Assembly: GCA_023898525.1 (NCBI GenBank)
Contig: CP060227.1
Span: 893,932 to 957,931, forward strand
Origin: Candidatus Nomurabacteria bacterium
Lineage (GTDB): Bacteria; Patescibacteriota; Minisyncoccia; Phycocordibacterales; UBA918
Length of the DNA: 64,000 bases
Direction of reading: 5' to 3'
Numbering within the stretch: position 1 is the stretch's first letter; the number at the start of each line of letters is the position of its first letter. The translations under genes and the position numbers were made by a program. Below are positions 31,322 through 60,606 of this stretch, piece after piece. The notes under the pieces are model-generated. The model searched no databases and was not told the origin of the DNA. It saw nothing but the letters and a program-made list of their open reading frames with translations.

Positions 31322-31510
31322 CATACTAATCAAATGTATAAAAACACTACTCCCTTTACTTTACTGACTCAATCAAGTCTGAATTAGAGTCATATGACTG
31401 GTTCGATTCCCCTTAAGGTATGAAATTTTGAATCAAAATTTGCACTTTTGGTAATCAAAATATGGCTTATTTTAATGTTGGATGGATAGAAATGTTACCA
31501 AAAATAACAT

Positions 31511-31754
31511 TCCTCTCTATGTGATGTATTAGCGCACCGCGCTCTAACTCACTACATCGCGAAGCGGTGAACCAACAACGCGCGGAGCGCGTGGTGATGC
31601 GGACGTGAAGCGTACGCATTCGGGAACCTCTGCGCGCCTCGCTGCCTCGCTCCACTCGGCCCCCAAAACCAAAGAAATTTCCTTACAATCATTTTTTCGG
31701 TGGAGGGGTCTGGGGAGGAGCCGACATAAAAAGGAAAGGATATTTCTTTGGTTT
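31511..31754. repeat. GC-rich long inverted repeat, copy A (about 244 bp), the left boundary of the R-M module
   Basis: Exact reverse complement of 36601-36845 on base-by-base comparison. Confidence 0.9.
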
Positions 31755-32100
31755 GGGATCGCCGCTTCGTCCTCCAAAAAGCTCCGTTTCAGTCTCCATT
31801 TATTTGAGAGTCTTCCACTTCGCTTTTCTCCGTACTCGCGGCGTGCGAGGCGCGCTCCCGTAGCGTACCCGCGTGGTAATTCTAGCGTTCGCTCACCACA
31901 CTCTAGCACCTCCGCACTGCTCGCTCGCTTCGCTCGCGCGAGCTGCTGCGGTGCTTCCGTGTGTGAGCTTGGTGGCTTCGGTTGGGTTCGTGGTTTTCAA
32001 AGTGGTTTGCGCTGACGCGCAAGCAAGTCTGTATGTGCTTGTCCCACCCTCCCAATACGCGCACAAACAACCCCGCCTAGCGTCGGGGTTGTTGCTCCCT

Positions 32101-33720: not shown

Positions 33721-33724
33721 GGAT

Positions 33725-34471
33725 TTATTTCTGAAACACGAACAAATGTTCGTGCATTATTAGCAAGAAATTGCTTTCTTTTGATTTGTTAACCCAAAAA
33801 CCAGTCGCTTTGCAGTTGTATTGTCGCTTGATGATGTCTTCCTTGAGATCAAAACCAGCGTTTAGAAAGCGATCCATAACACGATATGCAAGCGGTTGAT
33901 ACATTTTTTGTCGACGGGTGTCACCAATCAGAATCGCACAAAATTTTCCTGGTTTTAAGACGCGGTACAGTTCTTTTGCAACCTTTTCCATTTCGTCGGC
34001 AAATTCTTCAATTCCGTGGATGTTTGAAAGATCTTCGTTAATTTCTCCTTCACTGTATTTGATTATGTCAGCGTAGGGCGGGTGTGTGAGAATAAAATCA
34101 ATGCTCTCATTCTCGGCTTTGACGAGGTTGCGCGCGTCACGTTTTGCCACTTTTTGCCAAGCTTTGTTCTCAACGGGAAACTTCAAACTTTCTTTCGTTC
34201 GCTCCAAGGCAACATCGTTTACATCTGAACAAATGATATTGCGGTTGAGTATTTTTGCTTCAATCGCTGTCGTACCACCACCAATCATTGGATCAAGCAA
34301 AATATCACCCTCGTTGGAGTAACGGAGAATAAGATTGCGCGCGACTTCTGGTGACCAGTTGCCGCGCCAGTCTGACTTATGCGTTGCCCAATTCCCGCGA
34401 CGAGGAAAAGCCCACACCGTCGTGCATTCAAGATCAAATTCATCGGGGTGTAGTTTCATTTCCTTTGCCAT
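33725..34471 (-). CDS. Beta-class N6-adenine/N4-cytosine DNA methyltransferase (DpnA / M2.DpnII-like)
   Basis: Motif order is SAM-binding DPMIGGGTT and then the catalytic THPPY (DPPY-like), as in PF01555 methyltransferases. Confidence 0.75.
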   Translation of the reverse strand: MAKEMKLHPDEFDLECTTVWAFPRRGNWATHKSDWRGNWSPEVARNLILRYSNEGDILLDPMIGGGTTAIEAKILNRNIICSDVNDVALERTKESLKFPVENKAWQKVAKRDARNLVKAENESIDFILTHPPYADIIKYSEGEINEDLSNIHGIEEFADEMEKVAKELYRVLKPGKFCAILIGDTRRQKMYQPLAYRVMDRFLNAGFDLKEDIIKRQYNCKATGFWVNKSKESNFLLIMHEHLFVFQK

Positions 34472-34475
34472 TGTT

Positions 34476-35336
34476 TTACCAAGTTAGTTCATTGAGTACG
34501 TCGTCCTCAAGCATTTTGAGATTAAAAACTTGACCTTTGTTGTGTTCAAAAGTTTCTTCAAGTGGTCGCTTTGTGGTTTCCCAGCCGAGTCCGTCTGTAA
34601 CCCAAACAAAATCAATATCTTGTTTTGTTAGCTCGTCATATAAACTACGGAATTCGCCACACACCGCCTTTAGTTTTGAGCCACCTCCGTTATAGAAGTT
34701 TGTCTCAAACAATTTTAGTTTTTTGGTCTGTGGATTGTATACAGCGAAATCAAAGCTTCGTTCTGATTTATCGACATTTATTTCGTAGCTCCATTTGGCT
34801 TTGATGTCGGTTGCTCGTGCTTGGGCGATGTATTCAAAGCCACGTTTTTCTGAAAAATCTTTGACGTACGATTCCACAATTTCTTCCATGAGTGTTCCTC
34901 CACGGTTTTTTCGTCCGTTGCTATCCAACCCAACCTCGACTCCCATAACATAATCGACAAGATTTTTGATTCCATCTTTTTGGAAAAGGCGAGCAAGCCC
35001 AGATTTTTCGATAAACTCGAAATACTTTTCGGCACCATCTTCTCCGTTGGAGAAATCGAAAAACTCCGAATCTTTGGTGACCTTATCAAAAATCTCAAGT
35101 TTGTTTTCGCGTACTGCTAACAAGACAGGCAACGCTTTTACAATATCAGGATTTGATTCGTAGAGCTTTGCAAATTCTTCCGTTAGATTTTCCTTGCCGA
35201 GCAAGTAATTGAGTTTGTTTAGGGAAATCTCAAGATCAGTGGCGTTTGTGGTAACTTTGTCCCAATTTACAAAATAATCCCATGTTTTTATGGAGCTTTT
35301 GAAACCGTCCACCAGTTCTGTAAATGTTTTGTTCAT
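34476..35336 (-). CDS. DpnII/MboI-family type II restriction endonuclease (GATC-type)
   Basis: Blocks LNYLLGK, IKNLVDYVMGVEVGLDSNGRKNRGG, ETNFYNGGGSKL and FVWVTDGLGW are as I remember them from the DpnII family; the length is 286 aa. Confidence 0.65.
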   Translation of the reverse strand: MNKTFTELVDGFKSSIKTWDYFVNWDKVTTNATDLEISLNKLNYLLGKENLTEEFAKLYESNPDIVKALPVLLAVRENKLEIFDKVTKDSEFFDFSNGEDGAEKYFEFIEKSGLARLFQKDGIKNLVDYVMGVEVGLDSNGRKNRGGTLMEEIVESYVKDFSEKRGFEYIAQARATDIKAKWSYEINVDKSERSFDFAVYNPQTKKLKLFETNFYNGGGSKLKAVCGEFRSLYDELTKQDIDFVWVTDGLGWETTKRPLEETFEHNKGQVFNLKMLEDDVLNELTW

Positions 35337-35341
35337 ATCAT

Positions 35342-36298
35342 TCAGTAATTAGTTACTAATACCTCGCTAATCTTTCCGCGCTTTGCGGCGTTTGAGTTTA
35401 TTGCACGTCCTGCAGCGACTTTCGACACTTTTACGCCTTTGATTCCCGAGTAGAGTTTGTTAATGAAAGGAGTGTCAGAGTTAGAAAGCATGACGTAACA
35501 ACCGCGTTTGTGTAATTCGAAAAATGTATCTCTCAATTCCGCTTGCTCCTTGTCCAAGAATGAATCTGCAGTGTACGAAGTGAAAGACGCCGTCTTGCTC
35601 ACGGGATAGTATGGCGGATCAAAATATACAAAGTCTTCTTTCTTTGCTTTTTTAAGTACCGCTTTGTAGTCTTGGTTTTTAACGGTGACTTTTTGCAATG
35701 CTTTTGACACTTTGCGCAAGTTTTCCTCGTCGCAAATTATAGGGTTTGTATATTTACCAAACGGTACATTGAAACCGCCTTTGCTGTTGACTCGGTACAT
35801 TCCATTGAAACAAGTTCGGTTTAGGAAAATAAAACGTGACGCAACATCAATATCTGACAATGCTTTTGGATCCCTTGCGCGCACTTCAAGGTAATACTCT
35901 TTTTCGTATTTGTGTTTTTTGAGAGATTTAATCAGTGCATCAACGTCATTTTTAATGACGTTATAGGTTACTACAAGTTCGTTGTTTAGATCTGAAAGTT
36001 CTGCTTTTTTTGGGAGAAGATCGAAAAAGACAGCACCTCCACCAACAAACGGTTCAAAGTAAGTATTTGTGACAGGATCAAAATCATCTGGTGGGTATAA
36101 CCCCATATCGCGGAATTGTTGGAGGAGTTGTCTTTTCCCACCAACCCATTTCACAAACGGCTTCGGCTTCTCATTAACAATTCGAGTAGCGTCCTCAAAC
36201 AATCGTGTTTTGTCTGCATTATGGAAAACATGATGCGCGTAGATTTTGTTGATATTTAACTCATGTGCGAGTTTTGTGATTGTTTGTTGCGTAGTCAT
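35342..36298 (-). CDS. Dam-like (alpha-class, D12) N6-adenine DNA methyltransferase (DpnM-like)
   Basis: VKWVGGKRQLL, FEPFVGGGAVFF and DPPYYP motifs. Confidence 0.8.
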   Translation of the reverse strand: MTTQQTITKLAHELNINKIYAHHVFHNADKTRLFEDATRIVNEKPKPFVKWVGGKRQLLQQFRDMGLYPPDDFDPVTNTYFEPFVGGGAVFFDLLPKKAELSDLNNELVVTYNVIKNDVDALIKSLKKHKYEKEYYLEVRARDPKALSDIDVASRFIFLNRTCFNGMYRVNSKGGFNVPFGKYTNPIICDEENLRKVSKALQKVTVKNQDYKAVLKKAKKEDFVYFDPPYYPVSKTASFTSYTADSFLDKEQAELRDTFFELHKRGCYVMLSNSDTPFINKLYSGIKGVKVSKVAAGRAINSNAAKRGKISEVLVTNY

Positions 36299-36302
36299 AA
36301 CT

Positions 36303-36506
36303 TTATTTTAGCAGTTCTGTGGTGCTAACTCCGAGTACCTTAGCTAGTTTGGAAATTGTCTCAAGGGTGGGGTTTGTTTTTCCGTTTTCGATATTGCTGA
36401 CATAACTGCGACTACAACCCATACCGCGCATAACATCACCTTGAGACATCCTTTTCGCTTCGCGAATCCTTTTCAAATTATTGCCGAGTTTTGTGGAATC
36501 ATTCAT
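36303..36506 (-). CDS. XRE-family HTH regulator, probably the controller (C) protein of the R-M operon
   Basis: 67 aa; LKRIREAKRMSQGDVMRGMGCSRSYVSNIENG is a classic XRE HTH. It is the first gene of the co-oriented cluster. Confidence 0.65.
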   Translation of the reverse strand: MNDSTKLGNNLKRIREAKRMSQGDVMRGMGCSRSYVSNIENGKTNPTLETISKLAKVLGVSTTELLK

Positions 36507-36600
36507 TCACACAATTATACCCAACTCTTACATTATACACGACTATTATATTTTAGTATAATAGGGTAATGGTGGAGAAAATGATTTTTAGGGACTCATT

Positions 36601-36845
36601 GCGGCGATCCCAAACCAAAGAAATATCCTTTCCTTTTTATGTCGGCTCCTCCCCAGACCCCTCCACCGAAAAAATGATTGTAAGGAAATTTCTTTGGTTT
36701 TGGGGGCCGAGTGGAGCGAGGCAGCGAGGCGCGCAGAGGTTCCCGAATGCGTACGCTTCACGTCCGCATCACCACGCGCTCCGCGCGTTGTTGGTTCACC
36801 GCTTCGCGATGTAGTGAGTTAGAGCGCGGTGCGCTAATACATCAC
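36601..36845. repeat. GC-rich long inverted repeat, copy A' (the partner of 31511-31754)
   Basis: See copy A. Confidence 0.9.
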
Positions 36846-36954
36846 CAATCGAAACAAACTCGGGAGCAAGGCCGCCTGCGGCGGCTATGGGGGCAATATG
36901 GCGGCGGCGTGCCGCCGCGCCCTGGGCAAAAGCAGCCTTTGTTTCTGCCACGCA
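36842..36954. repeat. GC-rich inverted repeat, copy B (about 113 bp), immediately upstream of the recombinase start
   Basis: Exact reverse complement of 38424-38536. Confidence 0.9.
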
Positions 36955-36986
36955 CTGCGTAATCCCAAAGTGAAACCCAGTACATT

Positions 36987-38594
36987 ATGAAAGAACTCAA
37001 ACCAAAATATGTTCTCTACGCTCGCAAGAGTACGGAAGATGATGATAAACAAGTAATGAGTATTGAAGCTCAGTTAGTTGAGTTGCATGAGTTTGCGCGT
37101 AGAGAACAACTTGAAATCCTATCGGAGTTTCAAGAGTCAAAAAGCGCAAAGACGCCCGGGCGTGAGACGTTTGGTGAGATGATGGCGTTTATTGAAAATC
37201 ATAACGAGCCACTTGGTATTCTCGCGTGGCACCCCGATCGTCTCGCTCGCAATTCGATAGACGGTGGGCGTATCGTGTATGCAGTGGACACAGGGAGTAT
37301 CGCGTCTTTGCGCTTTCCGACCTTTTGGTTTGAGCCAACGCCGCAAGGAAAGTTCATGTTGCAAGTGGCGTTCGGTCAGTCGAAATATTTTTCGGATAAC
37401 TTAGTAGAAAACGTGAAGCGTGGAATGCGCCAAAAACTTCGCCGTGGTGAATGGTTGACCAAAGCCCCGTTTGGGTATGTGAACAATCCAAAGACTCGCA
37501 ATATCGAACCGCATCCTGTGTATTCAAAGATTGTGGTGCGGGGCTTTGAAGAATATGCCAAAGGCACATACACCATAGAATCATTGGCGAAGTTTTTGGC
37601 TGACCTCGGTTTGGAAACCAAGAACCGAACACCACTTGGCAAAGCTTCCATTGTGCGGATGCTTTCTAACCGAGCGTATATCGGATTTATCAAATACAAA
37701 GATGAATGGCACGAAGGAAGCTTTGCGCCGATTATCACTCCCACACTGTTTGAAGCAGTCCAAAAGGTGCTCGAAACAAAACGGCGGCCTCGGGTACAGA
37801 AAGAACCACATAATTTTCCACTCACGCAGTTTGCCGAGTGCGGTGAGTGTGGCGGCATGATAACTGCTCAGTACACTACTAACAGGCATGGTACGAAGTA
37901 TGCGTATTATCGCTGTACTCAAAAGAAAGGATCATGCCGCCAACCGTACGTGGCCACCGCTTTGTTGGAGACACAAGTGAATGACATGCTTCAAACAGTT
38001 GCACTGCCGTCAGTGGAGATAGACAAGATTGATGGGTGGATTGTACGCTGGGAGCGTGAACAAACCGCTGATGACGGCAGTGCTGCCCGAGACCTTAAAA
38101 ATGAGATTGCGAGCGTGCAAGAGAAGCTTGATCGCTTAGTTTCTCTGTACCTTGATGGCGATATAGAGCGCGATAGTTATCTCGACCGCAAAGACAAGCT
38201 GATGCGCGAAAAAACGACGCTCGCTGAGAAATTGAATGGTCTCGGGCGTGGGAGTGATAATCGGCTCCAACCCTTGCGGCGTTTCGTTTTGTCTTTAAGA
38301 GAAGCCGTGAATTTGATAGAGAGCGGTGAGATGCACGAAAAACGTGACTTTCTGAAAAAGCTCGGCTCTAACCCTTCTCTTAAAGACAAAACACTTTCAT
38401 TGCACTGGGATGCACTTTGGGATGGCGTGGCAGAAACAAAGGCTGCTTTTGCCCAGGGCGCGGCGGCACGCCGCCGCCATATTGCCCCCATAGCCGCCGC
38501 AGGCGGCCTTGCTCCCGAGTTTGTTTCGATTGGTGACCCTACGGGGAATCGAACCCCGATTTGCAGGATGAGAACCTGCTGTCCTAGCCGTTAG
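36987..38594 (+). CDS. Large serine recombinase (resolvase domain + recombinase domain + zinc ribbon + coiled coil). The C-terminal ~55 aa are encoded by repeat B' and the tRNA-Glu 3' region and are probably not native
   Basis: N-terminal YARKSTEDDD..S (catalytic Ser region), Cys-rich CGECGG...YYRC zinc ribbon, then a coiled-coil. The tail is Ala/Gly/Arg-rich and comes from GC-rich repeat DNA. Confidence 0.8.
   Translation: MKELKPKYVLYARKSTEDDDKQVMSIEAQLVELHEFARREQLEILSEFQESKSAKTPGRETFGEMMAFIENHNEPLGILAWHPDRLARNSIDGGRIVYAVDTGSIASLRFPTFWFEPTPQGKFMLQVAFGQSKYFSDNLVENVKRGMRQKLRRGEWLTKAPFGYVNNPKTRNIEPHPVYSKIVVRGFEEYAKGTYTIESLAKFLADLGLETKNRTPLGKASIVRMLSNRAYIGFIKYKDEWHEGSFAPIITPTLFEAVQKVLETKRRPRVQKEPHNFPLTQFAECGECGGMITAQYTTNRHGTKYAYYRCTQKKGSCRQPYVATALLETQVNDMLQTVALPSVEIDKIDGWIVRWEREQTADDGSAARDLKNEIASVQEKLDRLVSLYLDGDIERDSYLDRKDKLMREKTTLAEKLNGLGRGSDNRLQPLRRFVLSLREAVNLIESGEMHEKRDFLKKLGSNPSLKDKTLSLHWDALWDGVAETKAAFAQGAAARRRHIAPIAAAGGLAPEFVSIGDPTGNRTPICRMRTCCPSR
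38424..38536. repeat. GC-rich inverted repeat, copy B' (the partner of 36842-36954)
   Basis: See copy B; it ends within the CCA end of tRNA-Glu. Confidence 0.9.
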
Positions 38595-38605
38595 ACGATA
38601 GGGCC
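38531..38605 (-). tRNA. tRNA-Glu (anticodon CTC) with an encoded CCA
   Basis: Reverse complement GGCCCTATCGTCTAACGGCTAGGACAGCAGGTTCTCATCCTGCAAATCGGGGTTCGATTCCCCGTAGGGTCACCA forms a cloverleaf with anticodon loop TTCTCAT. Confidence 0.8.
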
Positions 38606-49370: not shown

Positions 49371-49799
49371 TTACGTCAGACTAGTCACGTCATCTGTGAT
49401 ACTCCAGTATTTGACTCCATTAGGGATTCCGTCTGCGTAGCGTCTATCCTGATCTGTACCAAGACTTCTGCGTAACAAGCTCAGTATGTTATTAACCCAA
49501 TCTTGAAATTGATCATTCGAAAGATGTGGTAATTCTTCTGTAGTGTTAAAAAATCCTAGTGAAATTCTACGTTTGTGTGGAACTAGGTAGGATAAGACAA
49601 TTCTGTAATTTCCCTGATCACCAGCCTTTTGAACCTCAAGGTTCTGTTTTGAGCCACTGAGGTGATTATTTAACAATTGAGCCATTTGAATTACTAATTC
49701 TTTACTTATTTGTTTTTCGAAAACAATTTCGCCAGCAACTAGGGTAGAAAAAACATCTATTTTACTCATGGTAATCTCCTGTAATGTGGAGGTAGGCAT
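49371..49799 (-). CDS. Hypothetical protein
   Basis: 142-aa ORF. Confidence 0.3.
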   Translation of the reverse strand: MPTSTLQEITMSKIDVFSTLVAGEIVFEKQISKELVIQMAQLLNNHLSGSKQNLEVQKAGDQGNYRIVLSYLVPHKRRISLGFFNTTEELPHLSNDQFQDWVNNILSLLRRSLGTDQDRRYADGIPNGVKYWSITDDVTSLT

Positions 49800-49857
49800 G
49801 CCGGATGGTCATGCTTTTGCATTATACATATAATGATTATATATGTCAAGATAATGT

Positions 49858-50930
49858 ACGATCTCACCACCTTTGAGACTCTATCTCATAATGTTCTCTA
49901 TAATACTCCATGGGCGACAAAAGACCCAGTCCTTCATGCGGTCTCTCATGGTTATACCAATACAACCATTCATTCAGTGAATCATTGAAGTCAGGAATAC
50001 TATCTCGAAGCAGGGATCGGTGATAAATAATGTGTTCTTCTTGAACGGTACGATTGAATCGCTCTATATAGGCATTCATCTTAGGACAACGTGGATAAGT
50101 GTGATAATGGTTGATGTTAAGAGTTAAACAAGCTTCGTGGAAGTATTTAGCGAATTCTGAACCATTATCAGTCTGTATCTCATCTATACTAAAAGGGGTA
50201 TAGTGTATAAGTTGTTTTAGAAAGTCTCGAGCACTATTTGAAGAATGACTGGTATAAGTACGAGCGTAAGCAAACCGTCTTTCTATGTCTATGGCGGTGA
50301 GTATGTACCGTTTAGTGCCATCTATGTGTCTCACGATAGTGTCTATCTCCAAACCTTGTTTTTGTGGTCTTCTTTGTTTTTTAACCTTGGTTTTTCTTTG
50401 TTCTTTGTGTGTACCACTCTTAGCGTACCAAGAGAGCTTAACTGGATTCGGTAGTCTACCTAGTTCTTTAAGATCACTGATACAGCGATTAACATAGGAA
50501 ACTGACACCTTGAATCCTTCCTTCTTCAATAGCGGTACCAGCTTTTTCCCACCAATCCGTGGTCGCTTAGTACGCCAGTTGATAATAGCTTGCTCTAGTG
50601 GTGGTGATATCTGTCTCACTCTTCGTTTCTTAGGAGCAGTACTCTTGGGGTCTAGGGCTTGGATATTACCATTACTATCATTTAGTTCTTTTTGCCATCT
50701 AAATAAAGTTGGTCTAGATACGCCAAAAGCATCTTTGGTGGTATTAGTACCATGTTTTTGCCAAAACGTGAGTATTTTAACTCTTCTTTCGACCTCCTGT
50801 TTGTTTTTCATTGTCTGCCACTTTAGAGCACTATCAGCCGCTTTGGCAAACCCTCTGGTGTTCCTTAAAATGTTATGTATTCTCATTACTCCTTATTTAA
50901 GGAGTCTCATATGTATGTGAGATTATTCAG
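49858..50930 (-). mobile_element. IS element (IS481-like, single-ORF DDE transposase) with imperfect terminal inverted repeats
   Basis: The ends carry AGTCTCA-(7-8 nt)-TGAGAT in inverted orientation (49861-49881 and 50904-50926). The left IR overlaps the transposase stop codon. Confidence 0.5.
49864..50886 (-). CDS. DDE transposase with rve (integrase core) domain and N-terminal HTH
   Basis: D..D..E core: TDNGSEF, HPQTNG-like CPKMNAYIERFNRT, and an HTH in the first 60 aa. Confidence 0.8.
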   Translation of the reverse strand: MRIHNILRNTRGFAKAADSALKWQTMKNKQEVERRVKILTFWQKHGTNTTKDAFGVSRPTLFRWQKELNDSNGNIQALDPKSTAPKKRRVRQISPPLEQAIINWRTKRPRIGGKKLVPLLKKEGFKVSVSYVNRCISDLKELGRLPNPVKLSWYAKSGTHKEQRKTKVKKQRRPQKQGLEIDTIVRHIDGTKRYILTAIDIERRFAYARTYTSHSSNSARDFLKQLIHYTPFSIDEIQTDNGSEFAKYFHEACLTLNINHYHTYPRCPKMNAYIERFNRTVQEEHIIYHRSLLRDSIPDFNDSLNEWLYWYNHERPHEGLGLLSPMEYYREHYEIESQRW

Positions 50931-52282: not shown

Positions 52283-54751
52283 ATGCCGAAAAAGACAATT
52301 GCTGCTGAAACACCAGAATCGCCACGAGGGATTGTGACACAAAACATCACCAGTGAAATGGAGAATGCGTACCTCGATTACGCTATGTCGGTGATCACGC
52401 AGAGAGCACTACCTGATGTGCGTGACGGTCTTAAGCCGGTACATCGTCGCATTCTCTACTCAATGCGTCTCAATGGTCTTACGGCTAGCGCTAAATTCAA
52501 AAAATCAGCTACGGTAGTGGGAGATGTGCTTGGTAGTTTTCATCCGCATGGTGACTCTTCAGTGTACGAAGCAATGGTTAAGTTGGCTCAGGATTTTGCT
52601 ACCCGATATCCGCTGGTTTTGGGACAGGGAAACTTTGGTTCAATTGATGGTGATTCTCCAGCAGCCTATCGTTATACGGAGGCTAAAATGTCCAAGTTGG
52701 CTGAGGAGATGCTTCGTGATTTAGAAAAAGATACTGTCGATTGGCGACCCAACTTTGATGGTACTAAAAAAGAACCAATAGTTTTGCCGGCTGCGGTACC
52801 AAACCTGCTTTTGATGGGATCGCTTGGTATTGCGGTGGGTATGGCGACTAATATTCCGCCGCACAATCTCCGTGAAGTGGCAAGTGCGGTAGCTCATCTG
52901 ATTGATGATCCTGAAGCTTCAACTGATGATCTTTTGAAGCATATTAAGGGTCCTGATTTCCCGGTTGGAGCGGTAGCCTTTAATCAAAAGGATATTGCGC
53001 ACGCTTATGCCAATGGTAAAGGGGGTGTGACGGTGCGGGGAGAGGCGGAGATTGTCGAAGATAAGCGTGGTGCCTTTTCAATCGTGATTACTTCTATCCC
53101 GTATCGTGTAAATAAGGCTGATTTGCAGGTTAAAATTGCTGATTTGGTGCGTGATAAGAAGATTGATGGTATTCGCGATATGCGCGATGAGTCGACTTCT
53201 GACATTAGAATAGTGATTGATTTAAAGACGGGAGCACAGCCGCAAACTGTTCTAAACAAACTCTACAAACACACTCAGCTTGAAGACACTTTCCACTACA
53301 ATATGGTGGCCTTGGTTGATGGTATTCCACAGACCCTATCATTAAAAGCAATTCTTCAAGAATATGTTAAGCATCGAGCTGAAGTAATTCGCCGTCGTAC
53401 CGCCTATGATCTTGGTAAGGCTCGGGATCGTGAGCATATTTTGCTTGGTTTAAAGAAGGCTTTGGATCATATTGATAAGATCATTAAATTGATACGGGCG
53501 GCTAAAGATGTGCCGACTGCCCACGCAGCTTTGATGAAAGAGTTTAAGTTTTCCGCTATTCAGGCACAGGCTATTTTGGATATGCGACTCCAAAAGTTGG
53601 CTGGACTGGAGCGTAAGAAGATTGAGGATGAACTAAAAGCTATTCAGAAACTAATTAAGGAGCTTGAGGCAATCCTAAAAAGTAAGGCTAGGATGATGAA
53701 GATAGTCAAAGACGAATTGATGGAAATTTCGGACAAATACGGGGATGATAGGCGAACCAAGATTATTAAAGGCGGGGTAAAACAATTATCACAGGAAGAT
53801 CTGGTTCCGGATGATGAGAGTGTATTGGTTTTGACTGCGGGTGGGTATGTAAAACGCACTAATCCTGATGAATATCGTACGCAAAAGCGTGGCGGGGTTG
53901 GGGTGGTAGATTTAAATACCAAAGAAGAGGATGTTGTTACGACACTACTCACCACTTCAACTCATAGTGATTTGTTGTTCTTTACTGATAAAGGTAAGGT
54001 CTATCAGAGCAAAATGTACGAAATTCCTGAAGGTCGCAGGGCTACTAAAGGTAAGTCAATAATGAACTTTCTATCCATGGCAGCTGATGAACGCATCACT
54101 TCTGTTTTGCCGGTACGTAAAGACGAGTGGGCTGGTGAATGGAATCTAATTATGGCGACGAAAAACGGCGTGGTAAAGAAAAGTGACGCCGGTGCCTTTA
54201 AAGATGTGAGACGAAGTGGCTTGATTGCGATTACTCTCAAGGACGATGATTCATTGATTGCAACAAAATTTGTTGGTAAGGGTGATGAATTATCGTTGGT
54301 TACACTTAAGGGGCAATCAATTCGCTTTAAAGAATCTGATGTTCGTCAGATGGGGCGAACCGCTGCTGGTGTAACAGCAATGAAGCTCGGCAAAGGTGAT
54401 ATTATCGTGTCAGCTGATGTGATAAAGAAAGGGGAGAAGGATTCAGAGATTTTAATGGTGACTGAGCATGGTTACGGTAAGACTACACCTACTAAAGAAT
54501 ATAAAGTTCAAAAGCGTGGCGGGTCCGGTATCAAGACAGCTAAGGTGACCGACAAGACAGGCCTTATCGTGGCTGGAATTGTTTTGCGTAAAGAAGAAAG
54601 AGTGGAAGGTGAATTGGTGATTATGAGCCGAAAAGGACAGGTTATAAAATTGCCTCTCAAAGACGTGCCAACTCTAGGACGCCAGACACAAGGGGTACGG
54701 GTAATGAAGATGCGCGAGGGTGACGCGATTGCTAGTGTGGTGTTTGTTTAG
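52283..54751 (+). CDS. gyrA: DNA gyrase subunit A
   Basis: N-terminal [22 protein letters not shown], catalytic Tyr region [10 protein letters not shown], and C-terminal beta-pinwheel repeats. Confidence 0.9.
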
Positions 54752-54762
54752 ATAGAGCACTG

Positions 54763-54807
54763 TTGAGTAAAAAGGGCGGCACCGTAGGTGCCGCCCTTTT
54801 TACTCAA
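54763..54807. terminator. Terminator, a 45-nt perfect palindrome with a GTA loop
   Basis: ttgagtaaaaagggcggcacc-gta-ggtgccgccctttttactcaa. Confidence 0.75.
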
Positions 54808-55402
54808 CAACCAGCTATTTCCCTATGTCTCTATATGTATTACAATAATCACAAGTATGAATTTTGTTACACTAGGACGTTTTGTAGTGCCAGAGGTAGT
54901 GGCTACTCATTTCAATATTAAGCCCGGTGATAATGTGGCTGACTTTGGGGCCGGTAGTGGTTTTTATCTTAAGATTTTGTCCAACAGTGTTGATGACGGA
55001 AAGGTCTATGCTATTGATATTCAAAAACAATTAGTTGAAAAATTAGGCGAATACATCAGAATAAACAATCTACCCAATGTCCATCCTTTGTGGTGTGATC
55101 TGGAAGAAGAGGGGGGAATTAAGTTACCGGACGATGCTCTGGACGCTGGTATTCTAGTAAATACGTTATTTCAATTTGAGCAAAAAGAAGCAGCAATAGC
55201 CGAAATAAGTCGAGTCATAAAGCGTGGCGGACTTTTACATATTATTGATTGGTCGGAATCGTTTGGCGGGTTGGGTCCACAGCCAAATGATGTGATTACC
55301 AAAGATGATACGGTCGCTCTCTTAGAAGCCAATGGTTTTTTGTTGGAATCAGAATTTCCAGCCGGAGACCATCACTATGGTGTCACTTTTAGAAAATTAT
55401 GA
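54788..55402 (+). CDS. Class I SAM-dependent methyltransferase (the likely true start is near 54853, MNFVTLG, after the terminator)
   Basis: Motif I VADFGAGSGFY, motif II-like VYAIDI. Confidence 0.6.
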   Translation: MPPFLLNNQLFPYVSICITIITSMNFVTLGRFVVPEVVATHFNIKPGDNVADFGAGSGFYLKILSNSVDDGKVYAIDIQKQLVEKLGEYIRINNLPNVHPLWCDLEEEGGIKLPDDALDAGILVNTLFQFEQKEAAIAEISRVIKRGGLLHIIDWSESFGGLGPQPNDVITKDDTVALLEANGFLLESEFPAGDHHYGVTFRKL

Positions 55403-56700
55403 AATTACGTCCTTTTGAATTAGGTTTGATTATAGTGTTTGCAGTTTTGTTATTGGGTTCAATAGTTTTGTTGCGAACGTATGATATTGGTGACGAACCA
55501 ACGGATCCAGCCTTAACCACCGGAGTAACGGTCTGGGGTACTTTACCGGCAGACACATTTGAGAGGATATTACTTGACCTGGCTGGACAGAATGATGTTT
55601 ATCGGAACGTTACATATCGTTATGTACGTGAAGAGGATTTTGATAATGAGTTGTTGAACGCCTTAGCTGACCAACAGTCACCCGATATGGTGCTTATGTC
55701 TAGCGAAAAATTGGTTGAGCATAGAAACCGCTTATTCCCTATATCTTATGAAACTTTTCCTGAGCGTGATTTTAGGAACCTATATGTTGATGGAGCCTCA
55801 GTCTTTGCACTAGATAATGGTATATACGGTTTTCCGATTGCGGTTGATCCACTGGTTATGTATTGGAATCGAGATATATTTTCCAGTAATGGGTTTCTTA
55901 CCCCACCTACTACATGGGAGGATTTGGTAAATAATATAGCTCCAGTTATAACTGAGAGAGATTTCAATCGCAACATTGACCGAGCGACCGTCGCTATGGG
56001 TGATTTTAATAACGTCAAAAATGCTTTTCCAGTCATATCTATGCTTTTGGCTCAGGCTGGTAGCAAGTTTGCCATACCGAAAGGTAATTTGTATACATTA
56101 GATTTAAATATTCGTTTAGATGGTTCAACCGGAGCGTTTACCAACACCCTTACTTTTTATAGTAATTTTAGCAATATAAATAATACCCTGTATAGTTGGA
56201 ACCGCTCCTTACCACTTGATCGCGATATGTTTTTAAGCGAGGATCTAGCTCTGTATTTTGGTTACGGCAGTGAAGCTCGTGATCTGGAGGCAAAGAACCC
56301 TAACCTAAGTTTCGATATAGCTGAAGTTCCCCAGGCGCAAGACGCAAGTAACAAGCGAACTTATGGTAAATATTACGGCTTCTTTATACTAAAGGCAGCG
56401 CCAAACAAGGCTGGAGCTTACTCAGTAATACAAACTTTAAGTCAGCCTGCTTTTGCCAAACGCATAGCTGACACTAATAACTTGGCGCCTGTACACCGTA
56501 GTTTACTGCAACAAGGTAGTAACGATGTCTATGGTCGGGTTATTTATAGTTCTGCATTTAACACCAAAGCTTGGCTTAACCCCGATCTTGATCGTTTAGA
56601 TGATGTGTTTACAAAAGCTTTGGAGGATATTAGTGCAAATCGCCGTGATATAAACAGTGTGGTGGGGGATACTAATATTCGTCTGCGGCAGATTTATTAA
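55399..56700 (+). CDS. Extracellular solute-binding protein (ABC-type, family 1-like), membrane anchored
   Basis: N-terminal TM/signal, about 430 aa, periplasmic-binding-protein-like composition; translationally coupled to the upstream gene (overlap ATGA). Confidence 0.45.
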   Translation: MKLRPFELGLIIVFAVLLLGSIVLLRTYDIGDEPTDPALTTGVTVWGTLPADTFERILLDLAGQNDVYRNVTYRYVREEDFDNELLNALADQQSPDMVLMSSEKLVEHRNRLFPISYETFPERDFRNLYVDGASVFALDNGIYGFPIAVDPLVMYWNRDIFSSNGFLTPPTTWEDLVNNIAPVITERDFNRNIDRATVAMGDFNNVKNAFPVISMLLAQAGSKFAIPKGNLYTLDLNIRLDGSTGAFTNTLTFYSNFSNINNTLYSWNRSLPLDRDMFLSEDLALYFGYGSEARDLEAKNPNLSFDIAEVPQAQDASNKRTYGKYYGFFILKAAPNKAGAYSVIQTLSQPAFAKRIADTNNLAPVHRSLLQQGSNDVYGRVIYSSAFNTKAWLNPDLDRLDDVFTKALEDISANRRDINSVVGDTNIRLRQIY

Positions 56701-56709
56701 TTTTGTATT

Positions 56710-57087
56710 ATGTCAACAATAATCAGTCTAAATAGAATAAAATTTACTGCATTGTTATTTGTTTCTTCCTTCCTGGAGGTTACTTATGTTCAGGCGGCTG
56801 CGCCTGGTGTCGGTGCTACACAAGTTACCTTAGAAAATCCTCTAAATGTAGATTCTATTGAAGAGTTATTACAACTGATATTACAAATAGTTATAACTAT
56901 TGCCACCCCGATAGTTATATTCTTTATCATCTACGCTGGCTTTCTATATGTAACGGCTAAGGGTAATGCAGAGCAGACTCAAAAAGCGACCAGAGCCCTC
57001 ACTTACGCCATAATCGGTGGGGTTTTGATAATCGGTGCGGTAGTGATTGCGGGTATAATTAAAAACCTAGTCCTGTCATTCCAATAG
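56710..57087 (+). CDS. Small 2-TM protein, paralog 1 of a tandem family (VirB2/TrbC-pilin-like topology)
   Basis: Signal/TM, then TM-loop(GNAEQTQKATRA)-TM. Confidence 0.45.
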   Translation: MSTIISLNRIKFTALLFVSSFLEVTYVQAAAPGVGATQVTLENPLNVDSIEELLQLILQIVITIATPIVIFFIIYAGFLYVTAKGNAEQTQKATRALTYAIIGGVLIIGAVVIAGIIKNLVLSFQ

Positions 57088-57107
57088 TTAATTTATTTTC
57101 ATAGCCT

Positions 57108-57371
57108 ATGCCAACAACCCCTCCGTCCACTTTTAGTGAATTAGTAAATATATTTATAGGCCTAATAAACATATTAATTCCCACTATATTAGCAATTATT
57201 TTTCTTTTTTTAGTTTGGAAGATAATTGATGCTTGGGTAATTAACGCTGGTGATGAGAAGAAGCGAGAGGAAGGTAAAACTTTAGCCGTTATAGCAGTAA
57301 TTGTGTTCGTCTTGATATTGACTACTTGGGGTATTGTGGCGATGTTAAGACAATCTCTTTTTGGCATCTAA
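57108..57371 (+). CDS. Small 2-TM protein, paralog 2
   Basis: TM-loop(AGDEKKREEGKTL)-TM; shares the F..L..I....IP.....FL.FVW...... pattern. Confidence 0.45.
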   Translation: MPTTPPSTFSELVNIFIGLINILIPTILAIIFLFLVWKIIDAWVINAGDEKKREEGKTLAVIAVIVFVLILTTWGIVAMLRQSLFGI

Positions 57372-57485
57372 TTTAGTGCTTATAGTTTTATACACAGTTT
57401 ACGAAATTGACCTAGTAATATTAGTAAAAAAGGTTATAATTTTTCCAGGTCTTATTAGTTTTAGATAATATTAATAATTATATAT

Positions 57486-57872
57486 ATGCAACGTTTTAAA
57501 TTATTCGCGAGTTCTGCAGCTATGTTTGCATTGCCATTAGCTTTTGCGTCAGCGCAGGGTGGTTTAGCAACAGATGGTACAGGCGGTCCGTTTGAGCTTC
57601 TATTGGCTAACATTCTAACTTTCACGAACGCTGTTCTTATCCCATTCATCATTGGTATTGGGTTCTTAGTCTTTGTCTGGGGAATGTTCCAATACTTTAT
57701 TGCTGGTGGTGCTAATGATGAATCTAAGGAAAAGGGTAAGAGTCTTATGATTTGGGCCACTCTAGGCTTTGTTCTTATCATCATCTTCTGGGGTGTTGTT
57801 AACTTGCTTACACAAAGTACAGGTTTGCAGGACAACGACATTCTGTCTGTACCAACTGTTCTAGAGTTGTAA
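57486..57872 (+). CDS. Small 2-TM protein, paralog 3
   Basis: Signal peptide, then TM-loop(GGANDESKEKGKSL)-TM. Confidence 0.45.
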   Translation: MQRFKLFASSAAMFALPLAFASAQGGLATDGTGGPFELLLANILTFTNAVLIPFIIGIGFLVFVWGMFQYFIAGGANDESKEKGKSLMIWATLGFVLIIIFWGVVNLLTQSTGLQDNDILSVPTVLEL

Positions 57873-57978
57873 GAGTTGGTTTAGTGTTTGCATTACACAC
57901 AACAAAAGGGCCCTTAGGGCCTTTTGTTGTGTGTAACTGTCTAAAACCAGAGGGATTTGTAGTACAATAATTTAGTCT

Positions 57979-58314
57979 ATGTCACCTCAACAAAAAGTAG
58001 CCGAAGAGACAGGAGATTTCGTCAATAAACTCAATGACATAATACTTTTTCCTTTAATTGCTCTTTTGTCAGCTATTGCCTTTTTGGTTTTTATTTATGG
58101 CTTGGCTGTTTATGTATTTAATAGCAACAACGAAACTGCCAGATCAGAAGGGAAGAAGCATATCATGTATGGCATTATAGGGTTGGTTGTTATGATTTCT
58201 GCCTACACACTTCTGTCGATAGCTTCTAATACCTTTGGCATGAATAGGCAGCTCGACTGCGCTGATAACTTCCAACCTGGTTGTGAAGAGGTGTTTAAGG
58301 TTAAGACTGAGTAA
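57979..58314 (+). CDS. Small 2-TM protein, paralog 4
   Basis: TM-loop(NNETARSEGKKHI)-TM. Confidence 0.45.
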   Translation: MSPQQKVAEETGDFVNKLNDIILFPLIALLSAIAFLVFIYGLAVYVFNSNNETARSEGKKHIMYGIIGLVVMISAYTLLSIASNTFGMNRQLDCADNFQPGCEEVFKVKTE

Positions 58315-58373
58315 TGTATTTGTATAAAAAAGGACCACCTTCCTGATGCTTGATCTGGTTGGTGGTCCGTTTG

Positions 58374-59216
58374 CTAAGAACATGGATTTTTGTGTAGGCT
58401 TCCCAAACGCAGGGTTACCTGTAGTCTTACCCACATCGTTCCGTTGTCGGTTAATTTCCTAAACGAGTCTGGAGCGATGCGCCATTGTATAACTGGGCTT
58501 CGAGGCGTGTTTATTTGTTCAAACATAACTTCAAAGGGCAATTTTTTAGGCTCCAATACCTTATCGCATGCCCAAAAAGCCAAGACCTCATTAGGTCGTC
58601 TTTTCATGTGCTCTGGTCCTGGAGTTGGTACACGAACTTCCACTATTTTGTTGATAGGTACTGCGTAAGTTTCTGTGTCGCCATCTTTTCCGTTGATAAA
58701 CTTAAAAACAACTGGCTCAGTATCAATTGAGACGGTTTCTTTGTTATCACCGCTGTCTTTGTAATAAATGGAGTAAGCTATACTAAGTATAATTCCACAT
58801 AGTACAAGTACGATAACCCAGAACAAAGCCCAACTCACCGAAAGAGAACCTTTGTTTTTCCACCATCCGTAGATGATGGAAATAACCCACAGAGCAACGA
58901 CAATTTTCAGTATCCATAGTACAGTACCTGTCCATTCACCTAAGTATGTGCTTAGGTATGCACCTGGTTGTGAAGTGGTAAAGTCACCAAAAAAAGATAA
59001 TAAAGAAGAAATATTTATGTCGTCATAAAAAATCCACACTACGATTAATAAAAGTGCCAAAAACTCTGGTAGAAGATAGGGTTTATTTTTTGTCCAAACC
59101 CCAACGTTCTTAGTTGAGTTACTTACGGCACTTGTGTTATTGGGTTGTGTGTAGATAATATATATGACTATTATTGTGAGAACAATAACAGCTGCTATCT
59201 CTGGCCAATAGCCCAT
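58374..59216 (-). CDS. Hypothetical polytopic membrane protein
   Basis: About 5 TM helices plus a C-terminal soluble domain. Confidence 0.35.
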   Translation of the reverse strand: MGYWPEIAAVIVLTIIVIYIIYTQPNNTSAVSNSTKNVGVWTKNKPYLLPEFLALLLIVVWIFYDDINISSLLSFFGDFTTSQPGAYLSTYLGEWTGTVLWILKIVVALWVISIIYGWWKNKGSLSVSWALFWVIVLVLCGIILSIAYSIYYKDSGDNKETVSIDTEPVVFKFINGKDGDTETYAVPINKIVEVRVPTPGPEHMKRRPNEVLAFWACDKVLEPKKLPFEVMFEQINTPRSPVIQWRIAPDSFRKLTDNGTMWVRLQVTLRLGSLHKNPCS

Positions 59217-59346
59217 TTCTTACCTCCAATTGATTAAAATATTATTAAACAACAATTTATTAAAATTATACATAAAAATATATAAATGTCAAATAAAAGA
59301 ACCGCTTTGACACTAAATGTCAAAGCGGTCAAATAGCAGATTGAAT

Positions 59347-60606
59347 CTATCCACTTTTATTTCTATTTTTTGTTTCCAGCAAAATTGCTTTTCGTATAGT
59401 ATCTGCTTCTTCATCTTTATTATCTTTACCAGATGTATTGATACTAACGATAGCACCTTCTGGAGCAGCTTGTACTGTACGAATTGTAGACTCTCTTTGG
59501 TATACCATCTTACCTTCTTCCGTTTTTATGGCTTCTGTAATCCTTTTTGTTGCTTCAGCTTCAGCTTCAGCTTGAGTTGTACGGCTTTTAGCATCTGCTT
59601 CTGCTTTAGCTACGGCAGATAAAGCTTCAGCAAGTTTTGGGTCTAGTATATCTTGGTCATATATGGCTGCATATTCTAAATACATGCCTATTTCCCTAAG
59701 TATTGGAACTCCACTTTCACTTTTGAAGTTTAAGCTTTCGGCACCTCTTGCTAGACTTTCTTTGAGCTTTTCTTGGTCACCTAAGGCTATTAACGCATCG
59801 CTAAGTTCAGTTTTATGTTCTGACATTAGTGTTTCTTGGTATGTTTTGCTCATGTAAAAATTTCTAGCAATACCTTGTGTTAAACTAGAGATTCTTGTAT
59901 ACCAACTTTCGCCTGGTGATACTGCAAAGGCTGCTAACCATGGGTTTGTAACTTTTGCTATGATGTGTATAGTTACTTTCATTTTAACATTATCCCGCGT
60001 CTCTACAATAGGAACTATCACAAAGACATCAAATGGCATAACTCTTAAATGATTACTGTAGCCACTAGATTGAACTATTTCACCTTTTTCTAACTTCAAA
60101 TAGTCTAGTTTATAGATCCTGGGAGCCCTCCATGGAGGGGGTCCTGCGAAAATCATGCTGTTTGTTTTAAATACTATAACCTTACTAAGCCACCATAGAT
60201 ATCTCACTGTGAAAAAGGGGATCATGTATATATCCCATTTAGGAAGTGGAAATATGGAAGTGATACCATAATTATCCTCTGGAATTACGTTATACTCTTT
60301 ACCTGCCTTAAGTGTGTCAGGTAGATCGCTAACATCCTCCTTTGGAACACCCAATGTGTGGCCTTGGTAGTTCATTATAAACATCACAGGCCTATCATCT
60401 TTGACTAAGATTACGGCTAGTCCGGGTGTAAAACCTATATACCAGCCCTTTTTCTCGTTGGGTATTATTCTACCATCTTCCCCTTTAGTATAAGGTTCAG
60501 CTTTTAGGTATGGAGCAAAAATCATTGCTAATACAGTGATGCCACCGATTACATAAATAGGTAGTTTTATATACCAAATAATCAGGAATTCAATTATCCA
60601 TTCCAT
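59347..60606 (-). CDS. SPFH/band-7 (stomatin/flotillin-like) membrane protein
   Basis: N-terminal TM, SPFH-like core and a C-terminal A/E-rich coiled coil (AEAEAEATKRITEA). Confidence 0.5.
   Translation of the reverse strand: MEWIIEFLIIWYIKLPIYVIGGITVLAMIFAPYLKAEPYTKGEDGRIIPNEKKGWYIGFTPGLAVILVKDDRPVMFIMNYQGHTLGVPKEDVSDLPDTLKAGKEYNVIPEDNYGITSIFPLPKWDIYMIPFFTVRYLWWLSKVIVFKTNSMIFAGPPPWRAPRIYKLDYLKLEKGEIVQSSGYSNHLRVMPFDVFVIVPIVETRDNVKMKVTIHIIAKVTNPWLAAFAVSPGESWYTRISSLTQGIARNFYMSKTYQETLMSEHKTELSDALIALGDQEKLKESLARGAESLNFKSESGVPILREIGMYLEYAAIYDQDILDPKLAEALSAVAKAEADAKSRTTQAEAEAEATKRITEAIKTEEGKMVYQRESTIRTVQAAPEGAIVSINTSGKDNKDEEADTIRKAILLETKNRNKSG

Follow-up and report, generated by a model that had tools for sequence, protein, structure and literature searches.

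A probable T4SS pilin-family array of four ancient, conserved paralogs downstream of gyrA in a Candidatus Nomurabacteria genome

Background

Patescibacteria (CPR) are ultrasmall, obligate epibionts. Tandem arrays of small pilin-like genes have already been described in this phylum: Quiñonero-Coronel et al. (2025, PMC12102498) reported 441 arrays of 2-11 VirB2-like genes in 383 Patescibacteria assemblies, with a mean identity of 25%. An array was defined there as 2-11 genes matching PF18895 (T4SS_pilin) or PF04956 (TrbC/VirB2) with i-E <0.001 and >50% profile coverage, lying in tandem or with one non-pilin gene between them. Proximity to virB4, seen in ~58% of pilin-bearing assemblies, was not obligatory, and the monoderm-type MPF-FATA class was the closest to the Patescibacteria type IV secretion system (T4SS) (PMC12102498). 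In Paceibacteria, the usual site of virB4 is near dnaA/dnaN. By analogy with the VirB2 paralogs of Bartonella and Anaplasma, the same survey suggests a role in variation for such arrays. In the one system tested genetically, that of Ca. Southlakia epibionticum ML1, an unusual monoderm Patescibacteria T4SS and its pilin array were found to be essential: six PF18895 genes (SEML1_0014-0019), all of them essential, lie beside VirB4, PrgI and VirB6 (Wang et al. 2023, PMC10633639). No mention of a filament of PF18895 proteins was found in the literature examined, nor was any mention of T4SS or pili found in a published activated-sludge study of CPR bacteria.

Gene content and architecture of the array

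The array described here comes from a Candidatus Nomurabacteria MAG, in a 64-kb stretch of DNA that was analysed as a whole and is referred to below as the window. Four plus-strand ORFs are listed between 56710 and 58314 (P1-P4, Table 1), with limits identical to those given in an earlier sequence-only reading of this DNA, and the four loop sequences quoted in that reading are all found in their products. A Kyte-Doolittle scan bears out the architecture it described, with each protein having two hydrophobic segments and a short polar loop rich in K/E/G. Pairwise identity among the four is 18-26%, as low as had been claimed; the proposed shared motif, F..L..I.....IP......FL.FVW, holds as a loose fit, with five columns invariant across P1-P4. 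A profile HMM built from 248 pilins detected no further pilin genes in the window.

Table 1. Positions of the array genes, their neighbours and the associated expression elements in the window
Feature	Position	Strand	Description
Hairpin after gyrA	54762..54809	+	Strong, terminator-like, intrinsic type; 23-bp stem, then U-run
Methyltransferase	54857..55402	+	Class I SAM-dependent; 181 aa (start as in NCBI record; L001 gene call); Pfam Methyltransf_11/25/31
MalE-like (SBP_bac_1) protein	55399..56700	+	Membrane-anchored binding protein; PF01547 46.5 bits
P1	56710..57087	+	125 aa; PF18895 pilin-like, predicted Sec signal peptide
P2	57108..57371	+	87 aa; pilin-like, no signal peptide; 20 nt after P1
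Promoter-like region before P3	57388..57440	+	From P2-P3 spacer alignment of 24 loci
P3	57486..57872	+	128 aa; pilin-like, predicted signal peptide
Hairpin after P3	57893..57936	+	Long, perfect; GC core, U-rich tail; bidirectional terminator-like
P4	57979..58314	+	111 aa; pilin-like, no signal peptide
Hairpin between convergent P4 and M280	58332..58368	+	-23 kcal/mol, z -4.6
M280	58374..59216	-	Polytopic membrane protein, 280 aa; C-terminal soluble domain
SPFH/Band_7-like protein	59347..60606	-	Membrane protein, 419 aa; Band_7 20.6 bits

The two signal peptides noted earlier are those of P1 and P3, which were predicted by eye from the sequence and are kept in the orthologs. Cleavage is predicted after residue 29 in P1 (between …TYVQA and AAPG), and between …AFASA and QGG in P3, where the mature protein would start at Q24. 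P2 and P4 have no signal peptide, and neither ORF can be extended upstream. The AlphaFold2 model of P3 is a helical hairpin (helices 34-73 and 78-111) preceded by a signal helix at residues 3-24. P3 is the most conserved of the four, with an invariant core, VLIPFIIGIGFLVFVWGMF, in the ortholog alignments; P1 is the fastest evolving and the most TrbC-like. P4 has a conserved Cys-x8-Cys pair in its C-terminal tail: of 81 orthologs, 60 carry C-x(5-12)-C, and in 53 of these the spacing is 8.

Assignment to the T4SS pilin family

All four proteins match PF18895, at 39.1, 23.7, 33.0 and 34.3 bits for P1 to P4, respectively; the gathering score of the family (26.6 bits) is exceeded by P1, P3 and P4, and P2 falls short of it (E 5e-5). 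P1 also matches PF04956, marginally (28.1 bits; cut-off 27.9), and no match to this family was found for P2-P4 in the Pfam scan. The sequence-only reading had guessed a pilin-like family and had set a profile search against PF04956 and pilin families as the test of that guess, which these matches support. On the published definition, P1-P4 form an array, being four consecutive genes with E-values of 7.7e-10 to 5.1e-5, the shortest PF18895 profile stretch among them covering positions 20-71 of 71 (PMC12102498). The Mbov_0395 family model (NF045849) is matched by all four over nearly its full length at 27-36 bits, against a curated cut-off of 40 bits. PF18895 was present in nearly all of the 1855 relatives retrieved. 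The type IV prepilin (T4P) methylation motif PF07963 had no Pfam match in P1-P4. A true N_methyl protein is encoded elsewhere in the window, at 26870-27379.

Pairwise comparisons link the members unevenly. P2 and P3 are connected by phmmer at 42 bits and P3 and P4 at 25 bits, and hhalign of the ortholog profiles pairs P4 with P3 at 97.6% probability (E 3e-12). P1 is the outlier (hhalign 55% against P3 and 7% against P2), and it is chiefly the family profile that links it to P2-P4. By these sequence comparisons, the relatedness of P1-P4 is beyond chance. A direct tie to characterised VirB2 was sought and not demonstrated. In hhalign comparisons with eight Agrobacterium-type VirB2/TrbC proteins, which used shallow profiles (Neff 1.6-3), P1 gave 0.3%, P3 16% and P4 0.8% probability, none of them significant, and tblastn found no counterpart of P1 among 72,556 plasmids. 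Nothing specific came from PDB sequence searches or from Foldseek against the PDB, a comparison that is uninformative for a helical hairpin.

The reading that we prefer, at a rough probability of 0.6, is that P1-P4 belong to the Patescibacteria T4SS pilin family (PF18895), are distantly VirB2/TrbC-like and are probably non-redundant parts of one structure. The array adds one more case to the tandem pilin arrays published for Patescibacteria, and in most respects an ordinary one; what is new is its age, its orthogroups, the selection acting on it, its fixed neighbours and its expression layout.

Neighbouring genes and assembly machinery

The neighbours named in the sequence-only reading are present: an SBP_bac_1 protein (SBP), a polytopic membrane protein and a weakly matching SPFH/Band_7 protein. 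Upstream, the stop codon of the methyltransferase gene overlaps the SBP start codon (ATGA), and the methyltransferase lies directly upstream of SBP in 43 of 44 genome loci and 46 of 54 metagenome loci. The SBP has a conserved N terminus (MKLRPFEL) and a single TM helix. In its AlphaFold2 model (pLDDT 90.6) a helix spans residues 5-27, and the top Foldseek matches (E about 1e-20, TM 0.66-0.80) are to oligosaccharide-binding proteins, namely 5ysf, 2ghb and 2zyo, which places the modelled fold in the MalE cluster of the type 2 periplasmic-binding proteins. None of the ORFs of the window that were scanned with Pfam encodes a cognate ABC permease or ATPase for the SBP, nor was one seen among the checked ORFs of related loci, of which a subset was scanned.

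On the other side of the array, M280 has no Pfam, NCBIfam or PHROGs family and shares 19-29% identity with its positional counterparts in the related loci L003 and L005, its BLAST cluster taking in 31 of 52 loci. Its position is kept, but it is diverging very fast in sequence, and it is treated as context to the pilin system. The SPFH-like protein likewise evolves fast (20-27% identity to its positional counterparts) and is context only; its Band_7 score is below the cut-off of 23.6 bits, and its counterpart in L032 scores 43.8 bits.

As had been remarked earlier, the scanned ORFs of the window include no secretion ATPase of the T4SS or T4P type. VirB4, VirD4, VirB6, PrgI and TrsD were all absent from the 64 kb, and none of them was found within ~10 kb of the array in ~50 related species. 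In the available part of the survey's Table S1, the syntenic relative L020 (GCA_001781415.1) is VirB4-positive; OLB19, the closest relative among those listed in the available part of the survey, is VirB4-negative and is a draft assembly (PMC12102498).

This layout could be read in another way, as a T4SS-independent envelope module in which the PF18895 proteins and the MalE-like protein, perhaps with the methyltransferase, act in host-oligosaccharide capture or adhesion and are not pilus subunits. We consider this unlikely, though it accounts for several observations. A pilin gene directly follows the SBP gene almost without exception (48 of 49 and 64 of 66 testable loci), down to an SBP identity of 32%, and the methyltransferase-SBP-pilin block is retained in one locus (L060) where the gyrA flank has changed. 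No examined locus has a T4SS gene near the array, neither a permease nor an ATPase gene adjoins that of the SBP, the nearest folds to the SBP are those of oligosaccharide binders, and the VirB4-negative entry for OLB19 points the same way. Against this, the whole neighbourhood is syntenic, including gyrA and a rhodanese gene, so that gene adjacency by itself says little about a common function; the Southlakia family members lie inside a T4SS cluster that has no SBP; ~40% of Patescibacteria pilin genes lie away from virB4 regardless (PMC12102498); and the draft status of OLB19 is to be set beside the VirB4 recorded for another syntenic relative in the available part of the survey.

A more far-reaching version, which we hold to be doubtful, is that PF18895 proteins have been uncoupled from the T4SS in this Paceibacteria clade and form a new surface apparatus with the MalE-like protein (and the translationally coupled methyltransferase). 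If so, it might be, for example, a conduit or filament built of pilins, on which an oligosaccharide-binding protein is presented or by which it is fed, for scavenging from the host envelope, and it would be an SBP-dependent system without an ABC permease. The constant link of the array to an orphan sugar-binding-like surface protein, at a site apart from the ATPase genes, is a lead on the interaction partner of the apparatus.

Expression layout

A strong terminator-like hairpin separates gyrA from the methyltransferase-SBP-pilin unit, the fold of 54749-54860 having a free energy of -46.7 kcal/mol (z -8.4). Within the unit, the gaps between SBP, P1 and P2 are at most 20 nt. The conserved promoter-like region in the P2-P3 spacer contains a box, TTATACACA, at 57388-57396, which occurs only twice in the window, and a -10 element, which is GTTATAAT at 57433-57440 in the window and has the extended -10 consensus TGTATAAT. 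The hairpin that follows P3 (-38.3 kcal/mol, z -4.1) includes a terminator-scan match at 57905-57925. Structure downstream of the last P3 copy is conserved: across 48 loci the median MFE there is -28 kcal/mol per 80 nt, compared with about -8 in the regions that follow SBP and P1 and -10 in that which follows P2; after P4 the median in related loci is -23.5. Searches for known RNA elements around the array gave hairpin-type chance matches only, all below gathering scores. Because P3 is the most conserved member and has a promoter-like element and a strong terminator of its own, it is likely to be the major subunit. Roles for P3, P4 and the SBP are proposed here from conservation and gene layout alone.

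Orthology, age and selection

The order P1-P4 is kept in ~130 related loci (L003 and L005, 54 species-level genome loci and 80 metagenome loci), with one ortholog of each paralog in the same position. The paralogs fall into four orthogroups, with 54-58% identity within and 23-32% between them. Ortholog identities of 51-69% compare with 50-60% for the adjacent binding protein; P2 orthologs, of 82-110 aa, are found in nearly all related loci. In closely related pairs, dN/dS was 0.16 for P1, 0.04 for P2, 0.04 for P3 and 0.08 for P4, and 0.05 for the binding protein; these pairs were used because the comparison of the window with L003 and L005 was mostly saturated in dS, and thus mostly unusable. 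This orthology, a conservation like that of the binding protein and the low dN/dS together indicate that the divergence of P1-P4 is ancient and is maintained under purifying selection, and is not ongoing. The description of these genes as rapidly diversifying, given in the sequence-only reading, is therefore refuted by dN/dS values of 0.04-0.16, with orthologs in place throughout. The locus is a vertically inherited chromosomal block, gyrA / methyltransferase-SBP-P1-P2 / P3 / P4.

The same data bear on the proposal that these genes serve antigenic or host-range variation as a diversifying repertoire, the role that the 2025 survey suggests for such arrays. Such a repertoire would fit the low identity among the paralogs, a copy number that ranges from 4 to 7 across related loci through extra P1-like and P3-like copies, and the evolution of P1 at about four times the rate of P2 and P3. 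It is at odds with one-to-one orthologs in fixed order, with dN/dS values in the range of those of housekeeping neighbours, with the invariant core of P3, and with a promoter and terminator layout that differs among the members, which indicates different roles. The proposal is largely refuted for this clade, and we regard it as very improbable; paralogs that are fixed and non-redundant across a large Paceibacteria clade argue for a heteromeric structure, not a variation repertoire. Least credible of all, and refuted by the profile results, is the notion that P1-P4 are small membrane proteins of a generic kind or with no relation to one another (such as holins, bacteriocin-immunity proteins or transporter accessory subunits), alike in hydrophobic composition only: weak Pfam matches to DctQ, 7tm_1 and DUF families do show that compositional noise is present, and P1-P2 similarity is barely detectable, but three of the four proteins exceed the curated PF18895 threshold, P2, P3 and P4 are significantly related, and the genes lie in a chromosomal housekeeping region conserved across species. 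A phage or holin origin was also rejected, there being no PHROGs match.

Proposed mechanism

Under the T4SS pilin-family reading, P1 and P3 would be Sec substrates that signal peptidase I cleaves behind an AxA site, and P2 and P4 would be inserted into the membrane through their first helix. All four would fold as N-out/C-out hairpins whose short K/E/G-rich loop faces the cytoplasm, and the Cys-x8-Cys tail of P4 would be exposed outside. The subunits may then be extracted from the membrane and polymerised by a putative MPF-FATA-like T4SS encoded elsewhere in the genome, in Paceibacteria usually near dnaA, giving a short heteromeric pilus or conduit for host-cell contact. P3 would be the likely major subunit of this structure and P1, P2 and P4 likely specialised minor subunits. 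At the cell surface, the array probably has a partner in the membrane-anchored MalE-like protein, which would be co-transcribed with it and might, for example, bind glycans or oligosaccharides.

Comparison with known systems

The closest counterparts of P1-P4 are the other Patescibacteria arrays, of which that of Southlakia is the prototype. These belong to the same phylum and share with P1-P4 PF18895 matches with or without weak PF04956 matches, a size of ~90-185 aa, two helices, a tandem same-strand arrangement and a paralog identity of ~25%. The Southlakia array lies inside a T4SS cluster near the origin, whereas P1-P4 have no T4SS gene in the window or within ~10 kb in relatives and, unlike the Southlakia genes, stand behind gyrA in a fixed linkage with the genes of a methyltransferase and a MalE-like protein. 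The published survey did not address the division into four orthogroups with distinct features or the purifying selection on them (PMC12102498).

P1-P4 resemble the VirB2/TrbC pilins (PF04956; Agrobacterium VirB2, RP4 TrbC) in small size, signal peptide (in P1 and P3), two hydrophobic helices and short charged loop, and P1 reaches the gathering score of that family. They differ in that the P1, P3 and P4 profiles have no significant profile-profile similarity to Agrobacterium-type VirB2, in that the host is monoderm and the array has no adjacent virB1, virB3 or virB4, in contrast to the Gram-negative systems, and in that four distinct paralogs stand in place of one major pilin. The Mbov_0395 family (NCBIfam NF045849) comprises pilin-like conjugal transfer proteins of mycoplasma ICEs and belongs to a monoderm-type MPF-FATA system; P1-P4 match it below its cut-off and are not on an ICE. 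The VirB2 paralogs of Bartonella and Anaplasma are likewise several divergent VirB2-like genes in tandem; a role in antigenic or host-cell variation is attributed to those paralogs, whereas P1-P4 are conserved orthogroups under purifying selection.

The pilin-like array and its family assignment

The genes P1–P4 come from a member of the Parcubacteria group of the Patescibacteria, and the database entries for the proteins (H6779_04685, H6779_04695 and H6779_04700; Candidatus Nomurabacteria MAG, GCA_020632175.1) call them hypothetical. The sequence-only reading had described four same-strand genes sharing a two-helix architecture and low overall identity, two of them with signal peptides. This description holds: the ORF listing gives exactly the limits claimed, the quoted loop sequences are present, each protein shows two hydrophobic segments flanking a short K/E/G-rich loop, and identities among the four are 18–26%. 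The signal peptides, in P1 (VQA/AAPG) and P3 (ASA/QGG), are of the typical Sec type ending in AxA. P2 and P4 have no signal peptide at the N terminus, and no upstream extension of their ORFs is possible because the longest ORF is already listed. An AlphaFold2 model of P3 (pLDDT 77.6) places a helical hairpin after a signal helix, and a C-terminal Cys-x8-Cys pair of P4 is found in 60 of 81 orthologs.

All four proteins match Pfam PF18895 (T4SS_pilin), with scores of 39.1 (P1), 23.7 (P2), 33.0 (P3) and 34.3 bits (P4) against a gathering score of 26.6 bits, below which P2 falls. P1 also just reaches the cut-off of PF04956 (TrbC/VirB2; 28.1 vs 27.9 bits). Near-full-length but sub-threshold matches of all four (27–36 bits, cut-off 40) to NF045849, the NCBIfam family that covers pilin-like proteins for conjugal transfer in mycoplasma ICEs, hint that VirB2-like proteins also occur outside diderm T4SSs. 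Sequence comparison shows that P2, P3 and P4 are related (P2–P3, 42 bits by phmmer; P4–P3, 97.6% by hhalign), with P1 more distant (hhalign 55% to P3 and 7% to P2); no further family member was found in the 64-kb window. PDB sequence searches returned nothing relevant, Foldseek was uninformative, tblastn of P1 against plasmids gave no match, and hhalign comparisons with eight annotated VirB2/TrbC proteins did not exceed 16% probability. The proposal of VirB2/TrbC-like pilins stands at the family level; direct similarity to an experimentally characterised VirB2 was not detected. What supports the pilin label are the Pfam models and published work that places such genes with T4SS clusters in the genomes of other Patescibacteria.

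Features of the window. dN/dS values are from closely related pairs with unsaturated dS, some of which are not independent.
Feature	Position	Strand	Length	dN/dS
Predicted surface protein, DUF11 and peptidoglycan-binding domain	6950-10033	-	1027 aa	
Predicted surface protein, right-handed beta-helix and GDSL lipase domain	21670-24696	+	1008 aa	
T4P-type prepilin/pseudopilin	26870-27379	-	169 aa	
IS200-type transposase	29362-29823			
UvrD-like helicase	32101-33720			
DpnII-type restriction-modification system, two methylases	33725-36298			
Large serine recombinase	36987-38594			
tRNA-Glu, opposite strand to recombinase	38531-38605			
rve-family integrase (IS element) and 142-aa ORF	49371-50886			
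gyrA				0.02
Methyltransferase (MT)	54857-55402	+		0.05
MalE-like binding protein (SBP)	55399-56700	+		0.05
P1	56710-57087	+	125 aa	0.16
P2	57108-57371	+	87 aa	0.04
Box and -10-like element	57388-57440			
P3	57486-57872	+	128 aa	0.04
P4	57979-58314	+	111 aa	0.08
Membrane protein and SPFH-like genes	58374-60606	-		
Promoter between these two genes	59292-59265			
Terminator between these two genes	59330-59300			
Rhodanese				0.03

Conservation and selection

In two related MAGs (L003 and L005) the gene order is that of the window: Lactamase_B_3, a 152–182-aa protein, gyrA, MT, SBP, four pilins, two minus-strand genes and rhodanese. Scanning species-representative genomes with a P3 alignment yielded 54 loci, and an SBP alignment found more than 560 relatives in JGI metagenomes, of which 80 were kept; practically all of these 54 and 80 loci show the same block. 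Four orthogroups account for the pilins, with median identities of 54–58% within and 23–32% between groups, and arrays in relatives contain 4–7 genes, the additional copies being P1-like and P3-like. Between the window and the two MAGs, identities are 51–69% for the P1–P4 orthologs, 50–60% for SBP and 87–91% for GyrA. The array had been thought to diversify rapidly; dN/dS is only 0.04–0.16 for its genes and the P3 core VLIPFIIGIGFLVFVWGMF is invariant among nine orthologs, and this idea is therefore wrong. The divergence of the four paralogs is ancient and each one is maintained. On one contig (CAXRCZ010000007.1, 126,716 bp; loci L046 and L049) the whole gyrA-SBP-pilin block occurs twice, near both ends in opposite orientation and with identical gene lengths, which probably reflects either misassembly or a large inverted duplication.

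The neighbours named earlier, a substrate-binding protein, a polytopic membrane protein and an SPFH protein, were all recovered. The SBP has a conserved MKLRPFEL N terminus, one TM helix and a confidently modelled MalE-type fold (pLDDT 90.6), its nearest solved structures being β-1,2-glucooligosaccharide, maltotriose and cyclodextrin binding proteins; no accompanying permease or ATPase gene was found. A pilin gene lies directly 3' of SBP in 48 of 49 genome and 64 of 66 metagenome loci, even where SBP identity is as low as 32%, and a distant locus (L060) keeps the MT-SBP-pilin block with its gyrA flank replaced. The block suggests, without proving, a functional module. The SAM-dependent MT and the SBP precede the pilins almost invariably (window 54857-57371; loci L007-L141).

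Of the two genes following P4, one encodes a 280-aa polytopic membrane protein whose C-terminal domain is soluble and the other an SPFH/Band_7-like protein; both are conserved in position and extremely divergent (19–29% identity vs 87–91% for GyrA); if anything in the locus evolves fast, it is these. The P4-rhodanese interval (~2.4 kb) is always filled by two convergent genes (52 loci), and between the window's pair lie a perfect TTGACA-16-TATAAT promoter and a 14-bp terminator.

Transcriptional organization

A very strong terminator hairpin follows gyrA. The MT stop overlaps the SBP start (ATGA), and MT is translationally coupled to this orphan MalE-like binding protein; SBP, P1 and P2 are spaced by 9–20 nt. 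The ~100-nt P2-P3 spacer contains a conserved TTATACACA box, of which the 64-kb window has only two occurrences, and an extended -10-like TGTATAAT element (24 aligned loci). The box lies ~37 nt upstream of the TGTATAAT-type -10, and the pair is partly reverse-complementary (TTATACA / TGTATAA); it could be a regulator site. Folding of the 80 nt past the last P3 copy gave a median of -28 kcal/mol (48 loci); the corresponding value is about -8 for the sequence following SBP or P1 and -10 kcal/mol for that following P2. In the window this structure takes the form of a perfect 44-nt hairpin, which a U-rich tail follows, and a further hairpin lies after P4. From this layout we infer three putative transcription units, [MT-SBP-P1-P2], [P3] and [P4]; on this view P3 would be expressed abundantly and serve as the major subunit.

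Secretion machinery and proposed function

As the sequence-only reading had noted, no secretion ATPase is visible in the window: VirB4, T4CP, VirB6 and T4P ATPase were not found among Pfam-scanned ORFs of at least 120 aa, a scan that left aside a few 200–255-aa ORFs between 45 and 48.6 kb. The only other pilus-related gene in the window is a T4P-type prepilin with a methylation motif (PF07963), which is unrelated to the PF18895 array. No VirB4-like ORF was found within ~10 kb of the array in related genome loci. The virB4 of Paceibacteria usually lies near dnaA/dnaN (PMC12102498), and a closed relative (CP060229.1) has its array ~37 kb away from position 1. In Table S1 of the same survey, VirB4 is scored as present in a syntenic relative (GCA_001781415.1) and as absent from the draft OLB19 (PMC12102498).

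The main rival explanation, a T4SS-independent envelope module of SBP and pilins, is considered unlikely. The best explanation, to which we assign a probability of about 0.6, is that P1–P4 are four non-redundant VirB2-like subunits that would be assembled by a T4SS encoded elsewhere, with P3 as the presumed major subunit, and that may act at the surface jointly with the MalE-like protein.

Other features of the window

A low-GC region at ~29300-38600 (0.35 at 32–34 kb) is a probable mobile island, carrying the transposase, helicase, restriction-modification system and serine recombinase, the 3' end of which overlaps tRNA-Glu. The rve-family integrase insertion, between an S1-domain gene and the Lactamase_B_3 gene, is missing from that site in L003 and L005. 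Two very large surface proteins are predicted, and the stretch around the beta-helix gene has a GC content of 0.48 vs about 0.40.

Comparison with known systems

Tandem VirB2-like arrays are already known. A PF18895 and PF04956 search of 3,035 Patescibacteria genomes found 441 arrays in 383 assemblies; each has 2–11 VirB2-like genes, and identity within an array averages 25% (Quiñonero-Coronel et al. 2025, PMC12102498). Six PF18895 genes (SEML1_0014-0019) lie inside the T4SS cluster of Southlakia epibionticum, and all six are essential by Tn-seq (Wang et al. 2023, PMC10633639). According to a 2025 review, pilins make Patescibacteria T4SSs unique among monoderm systems. Given the Pfam matches and these published arrays, the initial family guess is therefore right and the present array is one more case of an established type; its orthogroup structure and invariant SBP linkage are what is added here.
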